Shown here one piece after another: positions 9,519 to 31,936 of a stretch of DNA of 64,000 nt. A program made the translations under genes and the position numbers. The stretch covers positions 266,910,001 to 266,974,000 of the forward strand of contig OZ024740.1 of NCBI GenBank assembly GCA_964016885.1. Direction: 5' to 3'. The DNA comes from Eledone cirrhosa (lineage: Eukaryota). Under the pieces are notes generated by a model. It did no database searches, was not told where the DNA came from, and worked only from the letters and a program-made list of their open reading frames with translations. Numbering within the stretch: position 1 is the stretch's first letter; the number at the start of each line of letters is the position of its first letter.

Positions 9519-9626
9519 TGAGGTGTATTTTCTTTACATTGTCGCCTGTGTCTTGGGCCCTTGTGGCCAATAAAAGAAATTATTATTATTATTATTATTA
9601 TTATTATTATTATTATTATTATTATT
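9519..9626 (+). mobile_element. Very short 3'-end remnant of a Tx1-type LINE with (ATT)n tail
   Basis: cccttgtggccaataaaagaa-(att)16, the same 3' terminus as the downstream full-length elements. Confidence 0.7.
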
Positions 9627-9861
9627 TGGACGCAATGTGTGAAAACAGTACAAGTCTGCGGGGGAAAAGACTCGTAACTTTAAGCTGTTTTAAAGTATCA
9701 TTTTTTGTATTTTCTTGTCGTTAACAAAACATAAGGTACCCAACTTGGTTTCAAGAGAGGGATACCTCTCAATATTCGGGCTTTAAGCCCGAATATTCAG
9801 ATTTATTTAAAAAAAGTTCGAAAAAAAAAATCGGCCCCCCCCCCCCCCCCTCCCCCCAAAA

Positions 9862-11812
9862 ATGGAAATGTTCGACCTTCAAACGGTAAACAACGTACAG
9901 GTCAAAAGTTTAAAAGCAGCCACTGTAGATTTCACCACAACTACGACGGCTACAGACATGCCGTCGTCCACTCTACTGAATGTGAAGGCAAAACTCAAAA
10001 GCTACCATCACAACCTTCTGTGATAGCAGCAGTATCATCTGAAAACGACATCACCACCGCCACCACCACCACAACAACAACAATTCAGAGCAACAACGAC
10101 AATAACACCGACAGCTTCAATGTAAACACGGATGGCGGTGGCCAACAGCATCAACAAACAAAACAACAACAACAATACCAATAACAACAGCAAGAACGAC
10201 AACACCAACAACAAGAGCATCAGAGGCACCACATTTGCTGCAGCAGCAGCAAAAACAAAGCGCTTATTGGATATTGATATTAGCGATAAAGACGAACAGT
10301 TGGCCCAAGCGTGGAGGCTAATTAAACGGGAGAAGTCCTGGGCAAACCTGACCATCCCGGACGAGGCAATAGCGGCCATGCAAAGGAGGACGGTGTACTT
10401 TCGATGCATTTCGGTGCAAACACGAAAAGTGGAACTTGCCAGCCAAGCAGAGGTCGAGGCTGCCTTGGAGTGCATCGGAAGTAACATAGAGTATAAAGCA
10501 AGAGCCAAACAGTTCGGTACCATCTCGGTACTGTTCAAAACCGAGGCCCTTGCTATTAAGCACTCGGTGACCCCCTGCAGAACGGAACGCATTATTATGC
10601 ACCCGTCCTACATGGGTAAAAGGACAGTAAAGGTCCGCATTCCCAGCATCCCACCAGGAATGAACATATGGTGGCTGCTGAGATGCGTAATCGAGGAGGG
10701 GACAGACACTACCCTCCTGGATATCAAAAGGCCAGAGAGAGAAGACTGGTCCGGAATGGATTTGGAGATTCTTCTCCAAATGAAACCGGAGGACATGAAC
10801 AGCATCTCGGATTTTGCCCGCCTGCAGGACGGGACAACAATCCAAATAATCACTGAGAGAAGAAGGCCACACTACTTCGTCTGCGGGGAAGCAACGCATC
10901 TGCAAGCCTTCTGCCGTCAGCGCAAAAATGCAGGGGGTCGCAAACCTCCTTTGTTGCCAACGCCAGTGTCAGCACGGAAAGCTGCACCACCACCACCAAA
11001 AACAACACCAACAAAGACACGGACACCAACATCAAAAACAGCCGGACCACCACCAACACCGAAACCAATCCAGGGGGAAAACGAGGAAAGCTCTCCCATT
11101 CCCCCCCCCCCCCAATTATACACATAGACAAAACAATAAACGCACACACAGACACAGAGACAATCATAGCCACAGACCCTTTGTCTTCCAGCAGCGAAGA
11201 TGAAGGAAAACCCAAAAGTGCAAAAAAAACAGAGAAAACTCACAAAAAAGCCCCAACAAAACACAAAAACATACACAACAAAAAATACAGACACCACTAA
11301 CGCAAACACTTCCCCAATAACATCATCACCAACAGCAACATCGACACCACCCTCACAATCCCCGAAACGCAAACAACCTAAACACACAAATACCTGAAAT
11401 TGCAGACACCACACCTACAACAAACACAGACATACCCGAAACAACACCACCAAAACCATCACCACCACAGTCACCAAAACGAAAACAAATAAAACCACAC
11501 CAACAAAATGTCAAAAACTTCGTGCTTGTCAGAAGGGCCAACGATAAACTGATGGCCCTCTTAGCACGAAGCGAGGACATTCAAACAGAGGGGGAGATTT
11601 TTGAAATGAGCACATTTTGCGTGCCAGAAGATTTGCTTCTGGTCCGAATGTTACTCGATTCCTTCAAAGAAATTCAAGAGAGCTTACCTCAAGACGTGGG
11701 AACCCCGAATGTGAAACCCACATCGAGACTTTTAAAGGGGTTCCCAAAAGAAACCCCACCAACCATGGAGGTCGAACCACTCGACCTTCACAAGACCCCG
11801 GGAGGTAAGTAA
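9862..11812 (+). pseudogene. Tx1 family A ORF1 (degenerate CCHC knuckle, P/T/K-rich tail), frameshifted
   Basis: YFVCGEATHLQAFC knuckle; homologous to ORF1 of the following elements; broken at several points including the poly-C at 11101-11113. Confidence 0.75.
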
Positions 11813-11841
11813 ACTTTCCCTCTCTCTTTTAGCTTGCTAAC

Positions 11842-28959: not shown

Positions 28960-29470
28960 AGGGCAGTGGATTGGCAGTATCGGTAGAGGGTCGGACGCCA
29001 TGCTTTGCAGCATAGAGTTATGGCCCTTTATGATCTGAGTTCAAATCCCGCCGAGGTTAACTTTGCCTTTCATCCTTACGGGGTCGATAAAATAAAGTAC
29101 CAGTAATGCACTGGGATAATTGCTGGCCTTGTGCCAAAAGTAAAAATAATGATAATAATTATTATTATTATTGTTAGGGCAGTGGATTGGCAGTATCGGT
29201 AGAGGGTCGGACGCCATGCTTTGCAGCATAGAGTTACGGCCCTTTATGATCTGAGTTAAAATCCCCCCGAGGTTAACTTTGCCTTTCATCCTTACAGGAT
29301 CGATAAAATAAAGTACCAGTCACGCACTGGGGTCGATTTAATCGACTTTTCCCTCCCCCAAAATTGATGGCCTTGTGCCTATATAAGAAATCATTGATTG
29401 GAGTGGCGGTGGATTGGCAGTATCGGTAGAGAGTCGGACGCCATGCTGTGCCAAAATTAGAAACAATTAT
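28960..29470 (+). mobile_element. Three tandem SINE copies (28960-29140, 29176-29395, internally deleted 29405-29470)
   Basis: Repeated ggcRgtggattggcagtatcggtagag heads separated by ATT-rich tracts. Confidence 0.85.
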
Positions 29471-29835
29471 TATTGTTGTTGTTATCTTCCTTGGATATCT
29501 GCATATTCAGATATCTCCCACCGGGCCTCAGCAATGGGCCTGGAGTGGCTGATCGTTTGTTATGACACATTTTCCAGCTCCGTGGATAACTGATTGTTGC
29601 AAATTATATAATAGATAAAACGTACCATTTTATATATGGTTACAACAAGGTTTGCCCTCCCAACATTACATTGACAATGCTTTCCACAAAATGTGAGCAG
29701 TATTAGTAAGTACGATTTAAAAAAAAATCCTTTTATACAAGGTTTACCTGGCATGTGATCGAAGAGTTTGTCAGTTCCTTTCCTTGTCCGGCTCAGTGCT
29801 CCAACTATAATTGGATTATTGTTATTATTATTATT

Positions 29836-30172
29836 TTCTTGGAGTCTCAGTCATTGATGTTATTTAACTGGAAAGTTTGTTCAAATGAACATCAAGCCGC
29901 TCCCTGCAGCCTCAGATATTCAGGACGTATCGGAGGTTTCTTGATGTTCCCAGCAAGCATGCCTTTTCAAGTGTTCCAAAACGAGGGTGTGTGGGTGGGG
30001 TGGACTAATATTCTTAAACCATCCTTGAAAACTCTTCGAGATAGTGCCTAGTGCTCCTATGACAATCGGGACGACCTTGATTTCATGACAGTCCCAAATC
30101 CTTTTTAATTCCCACTTTAAATCCTGGTATCGGTTAATTTTCTCCTTCTCCTTTTCTTGCACTCTCGTGTCA
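29836..30172 (-). mobile_element. R4/Dong-clade 3' segment (same family as 28583-28911)
   Basis: DTRVQEKEKEKINRYQDLKWELKRIW...IVIGALG; 3' end abuts (TTA)n. Confidence 0.85.
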
Positions 30173-31936
30173 ACCTTCTCAGTTTTATAAAGAACTCGCT
30201 GATAAATGCAAACCGAAGCACGTGTTTCCTGATTCAGTTGAGGCAATTGAATTTTGAAATAATATCTGAGAAATACCTTCTTCTCATAATGATGAGATAG
30301 AGTGGCTTCAAAGAGTAAAACATCAACCAAACCATAATATGAAACAAAATAACATAAGCATTTACTCTAGTGATGTCAAACAGTTTGTTACAAGAACGGC
30401 AAGCTGGAAGGTACCTAGCTCTGACGGCCTCCAAGGATTCTGGTTCAAGAAAATGAGCAATACGCCTGATAAGATAGCCGAGCACTTGGACAAGTGCTTC
30501 CAGCTAGAAGTCCCTAATTGGATGACCAAGTGTTGAACAGTCTTTATAATGACGGATAAGCGAAAGGAAATGTGGCTGCCAATTACTGACCAATGGCATG
30601 CCTGCCAATCATTTGGAAATTGGTGACTGGAATTATTGGGTACAAGATATACAAACGTCTCGAAGAGGCAAATCTCCTCCTAAATGAACAGAAAGGGCGT
30701 CGTAGAGGGTTCAGAGAAAAAAATACCAGTTATTAACTGATAAGGCAATGTTAAGCAACTGCAAGTGAACGAAAAAAAAGACTTGACAATGGCTTTCATA
30801 GATTACAAGAACGCCTATGACATGCTCCCCACTCCCACCCCAGTCTTGGTTAAAGGAAACACTTAACCTTGTAGGTCTAGGAGACAACATCAAGGAAATG
30901 CTATTCAAAGATATGAAGCAGTGGAGAACGGAATTGACATCTGGTAATGAAGTTCTAGATGTTCGCATCAGACAAGATATTTTCCAAGGGAACTCATTAT
31001 CACCTTTGTTGTTTATCATTATACTGATTTCCTTTACACTTGTTCTTAGAGAAACAACTTGTGGATACTACATGTCGAAAGAGCCCATGCCTATAAACCA
31101 GCTATTGTTCATGGACGATTTAAAGCTGTATGGCTTTACTGAAAGAGAACTTCATTCACTTGTCCACACAGTGAAGATTGTATCTGATGACAAATGCATG
31201 AAGTTTGATTTAGACAAGTGCAAAAAGATTATCAATGAAAAGGGCAAATTGGTTGCAATCGATGATATTGAAATGCCTGATGGCGAAAGAATGTCACAAA
31301 TTGAAGAAACAGGTTACAAATACTTGGGCCTGTTGCAGGATGTAGGGATTAGAACAGGCGAAATGAAGGAAAAGATTGAAAATACTAGGAGAGTGAAACA
31401 ATTGTCCAAATCACAACTGTATGCAGGAAATTTAACCTCTGGAATAAAACAATAGGTCTTGGGAGTAGTGGGGTATAGTGCTGGAATAGTTGATTGGACG
31501 AGACAAGACCTTGAAAGAATTGAAAGACGCACATGCAAGATCTTAACTTGCAATGGGGGCTTATTGCACCTTAACAGGAAGGAAGGTGAGAGAGGATTAA
31601 TTTAGGTTGAACAATGTGTATGTATTGAGTGCAACAGTTTGTAGGAGTATCTAACATTAACTAAAGAAACACTGCTCAGAGAAGTTCTGAAGGAAGACTT
31701 TATAACAGAAAGTCAAGGTAAGAAAGTATTCAACAAAGCCTTTAGAGAGAAACAAGAACAGGCATGGAAAGAAAAGGCTCTTCGTGGAAAATTTCCAGCT
31801 GATATTAAAGACATTATTGATCCTTTGGTCTTGGCTTTGGCTTAGGTCAGAACAAATTGAATAAAAGCTTAAAATCGATGAACAAAATTGCTCGCCGTTT
31901 TGCAGAGCGTGCCATAAAGCAGACGAATCTGTGGAA
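30173..31936 (+). pseudogene. R4/Dong-clade RT segment, inverted relative to its 3' segment
   Basis: WKVPSSDGLQGFWFK, IDYKNAYD, IFQGNSLSP, LLFMDDLK, YKYLG; ends at CRACHKADESVE (start of the CCHC finger). Confidence 0.85.

Follow-up and report, generated by a model that had tools for sequence, protein, structure and literature searches.

Microsatellite-specific insertion is known for Tx1-group long interspersed nuclear elements (LINEs) with an apurinic/apyrimidinic endonuclease (APE), namely Kibi in (TC)n, Koshi in (TTC)n and crocodilian Tx1 families in (TTCC/TTTC)n (PMC4494074 and PMC3812793, in their accessible parts), and Dong elements, including DongBg of a snail, target (TAA)n (PMC3812793). 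The accessible text of the latter source describes microsatellite targeting by APE-type LINEs as poorly understood. As far as the available portions of the following papers go, Dong-R4 is active in Octopus vulgaris (PMC13282606), cephalopod repeat types have been described (PMC8967140, PMC10294476), and the short interspersed nuclear element (SINE) SINEU is mobilised by Tx1-Mar, with tandem insertions around the target site duplication (PMC4494074). We analysed 64,000 nucleotides of Eledone cirrhosa DNA (GCA_964016885.1, contig OZ024740.1, positions 266,910,001–266,974,000 of the forward strand; this whole stretch is called the window), in which LINEs of two types and SINEs form a chain on ATT repeats within an intron of an SLC6 transporter gene. 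The one named animal match, together with repeat types like those described for cephalopods, likewise points to a probable octopus. The chain is very probably a stack of separate insertions into ATT repeats, made by L1/Tx1-like families on one strand and by two families with a restriction-like endonuclease (RLE) on the other, the repeats left behind being the likely next target.

Like Kibi, Koshi and the crocodilian Tx1 families in their available descriptions, the plus-strand families of the chain are APE-type L1/Tx1-group LINEs that insert into a microsatellite; unlike them, they use (ATT)n, with (ATCT)n as the target of sister families. The two RLE families, RLE1 and RLE2, combine a reverse transcriptase (RT), a CCHC motif and an RLE between (AAT)n flanks, which is ordinary for Dong, but they differ from the Dong elements of the accessible literature in sharing arrays with APE-type elements of the opposite strand. 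As in the available account of SINEU and Tx1-Mar, the SINE here is apparently moved by a Tx1-type LINE, with serial insertion at a duplicated target; it differs in sharing the 3′ tail of the LINEs, in having a looser target than theirs, and in that this target is a simple repeat and not a transposon. TRAS/SART, R1 and HeT-A/TART form telomere- and rDNA-specific LINE arrays. The present elements resemble them in their head-to-tail arrays at a regenerated repeat and in the use of opposite repeat strands by two element types, but their target is a dispersed microsatellite, so that chains occur throughout chromosome arms and introns.

No ATT- or ATCT-specific APE-type (Tx1) element was found in the accessible literature, a comparison that covered neither Repbase and Dfam nor the supplement of PMC4494074 or the work of Kojima and Fujiwara (2004). 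The words "target" and "nested" are absent from the main text of the O. vulgaris repeat annotation (PMC13282606), its supplement lying outside this check. Whereas microsatellite-specific Tx1 and TAA-specific Dong elements are already known, the ATT and ATCT targets appear new on the sources at hand.

The chain and its ATT junctions

The chain extends from 9519 to 29474 (19,956 bp) and makes up 21% of the ~93-kb intron. There is no spacer DNA between its members, each pair being separated by an ATT array alone (repeat scan of the window, all arrays reading ATT on the plus strand). It opens on the plus strand with what is left of an old APE-type, Tx1-like family, a 3′ end (9435–9578) whose left boundary is uncertain (9435–9464) and whose relatives elsewhere are 74–83% identical, 3 of 19 with similarity to open reading frame (ORF) 2 upstream; the original prediction had placed its start at 9519. 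An (ATT)16 node (9579–9626) precedes a full-length plus-strand copy of family A (9627–15510), in which both ORFs are broken and Pfam detects APE, RT and a zinc finger (PF03372, PF00078, PF13966); its nearest retrieved copy is 93.4% identical. Beyond (ATT)18 (15511–15564) lies B1, an older full-length family-B copy with broken ORFs (15565–21654, plus strand; Pfam matches), followed by (ATT)10 (21655–21684), by a 5′-truncated minus-strand element of family RLE2 (21685–22403) with CCHC, PD motif, RLE C-terminus and AAT flanks at both ends, and by (ATT)12 (22404–22441). The second family-B copy, B2 (22442–28474, plus strand; 99.3% identical to dispersed copies), has a broken ORF1 and an intact ORF2 of 1139 residues (24792–28211) and is the youngest member, although it sits internally. 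The chain then continues through (ATT)36 (28475–28582), a 5′-truncated minus-strand RLE1 element (28583–28912) with AAT flanks at both ends and 86% identity to a full-length copy just left of the window, and (ATT)14 (28913–28957) to a plus-strand SINE segment made up of two copies and one fragment (28958–29474). Short ATT nodes lie within it at 29158 and 29466, and the SINE 3′ tail is like those of the Tx1-like elements.

Identity of the members to their nearest retrieved relatives thus ranges from 74% to 99%, and in 400 kb of comparison DNA each strand has an array of at least three ATT units about once every 11–17 kb. As had been predicted, all APE-type elements lie on the ATT strand and all RLE 3′ ends on the AAT/TAA strand. 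A 22-kb chain (9519–31936) had been proposed; its spacer-free structure stands, but it ends at 29474, at ~20 kb, and the sequence at 30186–31930 lies outside it. The succession B1-RLE-B2-RLE was also considered as a tandem duplication and rejected, since B1 and B2 differ by 329 substitutions and the RLE pieces belong to two families (~41% amino acid identity), which likewise divides what had been given the single name Dong.

Pfam detects APE, RT and a C-terminal finger in all three long plus-strand elements (A, B1 and B2). Their layout is Tx1-like, with two ORFs and an ORF2 composed of an N-terminal APE, RT and a C-terminal Cys-His finger, and the best relative of solved structure for B2 ORF2 is human L1 ORF2 (E 2e-52). 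In an intact ORF1 of family B no Pfam match exceeds the cut-off, but a CCHC zinc knuckle, CX2CX4HX4C, is found. Such a knuckle in ORF1 is a feature of Tx1 clade LINEs. A and B are likely L1/Tx1-like LINEs, the Tx1 name being taken from domain layout and literature; their database homologues carry no family name. Both ORFs are open in 20 of the 34 full-length B copies, which makes it likely, as judged from sequence, that the family is currently active. Searches of metagenome contigs for relatives gave 70 pattern matches, 0 of them confirmed. In a further group, family C, the ORF2 is of B type but the 5′ part and ORF1 are not, the switch lying near B position 2269; this family likewise follows ATT (L127, L129, L130, L137, L143, L145, L146 and L154).

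Genome-wide, 2310 of the 2389 exact 5′ ends of family B (97%) are preceded by (ATT)3 in phase. Among the 30 best-scoring 5′ ends of each family, both sets including the window copy, at least three ATT units lie within 15 bases of all 30 in family B and of 26 in family A. Full-length ends do not decide the matter, because the RNA may itself carry a 5′ ATT leader, which cannot account for ATT at truncated copies. Copies were therefore collected by 3′ end. For family B, 38 of 40 matches were retrieved (the other two being the window's own copies); 11 of the 38 loci were set apart as family C, in which the 5′ end was located in 8 and ATT precedes all 8, and the B copies comprise 13 full-length ones, with ATT in 13, and 14 truncated ones, with ATT in 8. 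For family A, 33 of 40 matches were scored (5 full length, 28 truncated); ATT is present in 14 of the 28 truncated rows, or in 14 of 25 events once four copies of one duplication are merged. Together, 22 of 39 truncated insertions have a junction with at least three ATT units, against 0.10–0.15% of positions in the comparison DNA, and those with ATT break at many different positions of the element. The four merged copies (L184, L186, L187 and L188) have identical flanks and represent one truncated family-A insertion that segmental duplication has placed at four sites.

These proportions (97% of B 5′ ends, 56% of truncated insertions) exceed the threshold of >20% of flanks published for microsatellite specificity (PMC4494074, available part). 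The flanks are ATT and not the (TC)n or (TTC)n of Kibi and Koshi, and (TA)n arrays are not the usual flank, although they are ~20 times commoner than AAT arrays (676 versus 34 in 400 kb). In three insertions (L155, L156 and L334) the impure repeat of one side reappears on the other; at least part of the 3′ repeat is therefore a copy of the target. ATT is thereby supported as the insertion target of families A and B, not merely as their tail, in agreement with the prediction for both families; neither the genome-wide count of B 5′ ends nor the truncated junctions yielded the predominance of ordinary flanks that would have contradicted it.

The RLE elements show the mirror image of this pattern. 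Among 30 RLE1 loci, at least three AAT units follow the 3′ end in 27 of the 29 located cases, and AAT stands at 19 of 21 truncated 5′ junctions (scored by eye). The full-length copy just left of the window has a single open frame of 1141 residues between (AAT)17 and (AAT)12, in which RT, CCHC and RLE motifs were read by eye and RVT_1 is matched at E 6e-15. RLE2 is older (relatives 84–86% identical) and its 5′ junctions are less clear than those of RLE1. Translation of the minus-strand chain pieces gives the C-terminus of RLE-type LINEs. The single ORF and the (TAA)n target suggest that RLE1 is Dong/R4-like, a name drawn from layout and literature. A further repeat end, often found after ATT nodes (L128, L145, L149, L256 and L264), has the look of a 3′ terminus from a third RLE family on the minus strand.

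Arrays, (ATCT)n families and the SINE

Family-B elements also stand next to one another. For the first 100 of the 2389 places, 13 of 99 pairs of neighbouring 5′ ends lie within 7 kb (0.93 expected), all 13 on the same strand. One array (G000:C1:441.09-441.14 Mb, L249–L254) has 10 B copies head to tail, both ORFs being open in eight of them, and the impure host flank is reproduced in its nine spacers, of which seven measure 51 bp, one 36 and one 30. Copy E6 of this array is nearer to the dispersed copy L258 (14 bases different) than to the two copies beside it (37 and 34), and copy E4 differs by 10 bases from L256; because array copies have different nearest relatives, serial insertion is favoured over DNA duplication. 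The first copy of the array ends at position 2124, with an internal ATTA next to it. We infer that in such arrays the new cDNA is finished by pairing with the 5′ end of the resident neighbour. More generally, B is preceded by the 3′ end of another Tx1-like element at 12 of 29 loci (11 by script and L004 by eye); with the array merged, this is 8 of 25, compared with 0 of 26 unselected arrays of at least four units (p 0.002).

Each insertion leaves ATT on both sides, which likely serves as the target of the next. The prediction that each Tx1-like insertion renews the target for its own kind, for Dong and for SINEs agrees with the duplicated impure repeats and with the ten-copy array, except that the SINE needs only a short ATTAT. 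The predicted expansion of the intron by such feedback is tempered by the share of the chain, which is 21% of the intron and not the greater part.

Related elements of families D and E sit in (ATCT)n, with an ORF2 68–69% identical to that of B (20 stretches at round coordinates). At least three ATCT units are found at 28 of 30 family-E 5′ ends; family D has mostly ATCT ends, plus unique duplications. Three such elements follow in a row at L218, and the D and E loci (L218, L211, L212 and L269–L328) have chains of their own, the 40 best family-E 5′ ends being all near-identical. Over 240 positions of the endonuclease, A and B share 173 and D and E share 190, against 144–153 across targets, and 28 positions separate the ATT from the ATCT families. 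At the tip of a hairpin loop, defined by alignment to the loop exchanged in structures 2v0r and 2v0s, the ATT families have NR-I/M-G and the ATCT families NR-S-G. We take the exchanged loop to have a role in target specificity. A FastTree phylogeny that covers 29 of the 54 homologues besides 9 rows from the genome, none of them a named reference element, unites the ATCT families in one clade (100) adjoining family A (90), which suggests that the ATT target preceded the ATCT target.

The SINE is abundant, with 47 3′ ends in 400 kb. Its last 32 bases match five Tx1-like tails with scores that are reached in 0–34 of 5000 shuffles and do not resemble two RLE tails (2437 and 3807 of 5000), a comparison confined to these seven tails, those of RTE, CR1 and L2 lying outside it. 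An exact flanking repeat of 10–21 bp accompanies 22 of the 47 ends (~3 rows look spurious); 17 of these 22 duplications begin with ATTAT, and only 5 of the 22 sites lie in at least three ATT units. The SINE has the strand and ATT start of the Tx1-like elements but only a short target motif, and it is likely a passenger of their machinery with a looser target. The predicted (ATT)n specificity of the SINEs is not borne out, the short motif being sufficient.

Insertion route and alternatives

Target-primed reverse transcription is the established route of LINE insertion. On this route, the APE domain would nick the AAT strand, and the free 3′ end would prime reverse transcription of an RNA with AUU repeats at its end. 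This would account for the presence of AATAAA without poly(A) in the copies: in 123 distinct contexts of the 3′ motif, ATT comes next in 109 and ATCT in 6, and poly(A) in none of those listed. The second strand would open ~9–20 bp further on (30–51 bp in one array), thereby doubling the repeat, and the RLE elements would do likewise starting from the ATT strand. The SINE would borrow the Tx1-like machinery at shorter ATTAT sites and seed further nodes. New members would enter at internal nodes, and the chain would therefore grow from within over a long time. Of this model, the position, the strand rule, ATT at full-length and truncated junctions, the target duplication and the different ages and serial origin of the members are shown by the data.

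Specificity could instead reside mainly in RNA–DNA pairing, a loose endonuclease nicking near ATTAT and the AUU tail priming only where the nicked strand pairs with it. We hold this to be possible, though on balance doubtful. The ATTAT starts and scarce (ATT)3 of the SINE sites would fit, as would the nearly fixed phase of the 3′ junction, the lack of poly(A) after AATAAA and the 63% identity between endonucleases with different targets; a role of 3′ repeats in site choice has also been proposed for RTE elements (PMC6007223, accessible part). The 28 endonuclease positions that split the ATT and ATCT families, the difference at the loop tip (I/M versus S) and the direct joining of some 3′ ends to GTT units speak against it. 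RNA pairing and enzyme-led targeting can both hold.

Several observations weigh against the insertion model, and some of them would be accommodated if ATT were merely an element-encoded tail and leader and the chains arose by DNA duplication, unequal crossing-over or survival in tolerated sites. Seventeen of the 39 truncated insertions do not have at least three ATT units; some of these have impure ATT/GTT runs and others resemble later deletions, which we assume to have removed the repeat. The repeat is present at only 2 of the 5 full-length A copies found by 3′ end. Family E shares a CTCTAT 5′ variant at unlinked sites, which hints at a leader borne by the RNA, and none of the 30 B 5′ ends has fewer than six ATT units; part of the full-length 5′ repeat may thus be carried in the RNA, in which case the 97% overstates targeting. 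Neighbours in the B array share private 5′ variants and diverge further 3′, a pattern that unequal crossing-over or gene conversion could also give, and the excess of B after other Tx1-like ends loses significance against long arrays only (at least six units, 0 of 11; p 0.08). Public sequence runs showed no empty allele. A tail-and-leader origin is nonetheless improbable. The 22 of 39 truncated junctions with ATT, at many break points and against a background of 0.15%, contradict it, members of three Tx1-like and two RLE families stand in the chain beside SINEs and differ in age, and B2 stands 21–30 differences from dispersed copies, far closer than to B1. An assembly artefact joining repeats across ATT arrays is scarcely credible. 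Public contigs do break at ATT nodes, none bridging them, and two reduced-representation runs gave no read there, but each member is a diverged copy distinct from the others, junctions of these types are found at thousands of other sites and the flanking SLC6 exons fit in phase.

With insertion into ATT as the preferred reading, we tentatively extend it to an active Tx1-like radiation that may partition simple repeats, with A, B and C on (ATT)n and D and E on (ATCT)n after a switch in the endonuclease for which the loop-tip residue is a candidate. Such a radiation would drive the SINE, share ATT nodes with opposite-strand RLE elements, extend arrays through cDNA pairing with the 5′ end of a neighbour, and feed a self-reinforcing growth of introns and genome; it would also supply two intact enzymes, paired by nature, with which the target choice of LINEs could be mapped. 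Two sister groups that differ in target both have intact, near-identical copies, which makes target choice directly testable. For cephalopod genomes, the chains offer a mechanism behind repeat hotspots and long introns, features that annotations, in their accessible text, list unexplained (PMC13282606), and a likely partner LINE is named for a very common SINE.

Other features of the intron and the window

On its upstream side the intron is bounded by an SLC6 exon whose end lies ~61.2 kb to the left of the window, and the plus-strand exon that closes the intron lies at 32183–32315, with PF00209 matched on the next exon. A 328-bp SLC6 exon with an extended extracellular-loop region is found at 33513–33840. 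Between the chain and the closing exon, and after a gap of ~340 bp, lies a third RLE piece on the minus strand (29815–30172). As the prediction had it, an ATT array abuts its 3′ end, but the RLE1 copy itself covers only 29838–30172 and its 5′ junction is without AAT. It is followed by a decayed plus-strand RLE-type RT fragment (30186–31930; Pfam RVT_1), which has 22–59% amino acid identity to RLE1 and no close relatives among the loci retrieved for comparison; an origin by 5′ inversion of the third RLE copy was rejected, this divergence being too great. An Rfam search of 9000–33000 gave 0 matches.

Further along the window, a minus-strand frame of 427 residues (36402–37685) has no Pfam match but carries what we take to be RT-like and GIY-YIG-like motifs, and is probably a Penelope-like element. 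The GC-rich minus-strand segment at 60900–64000, with RT, integrase and DUF7047 matches, is probably a retrotransposon of the long terminal repeat type. At 42858–44765, two (TA)n arrays, 200 bp and 560 bp long, enclose a unit with (GAA)n that is repeated at a distance of ~740 bp.

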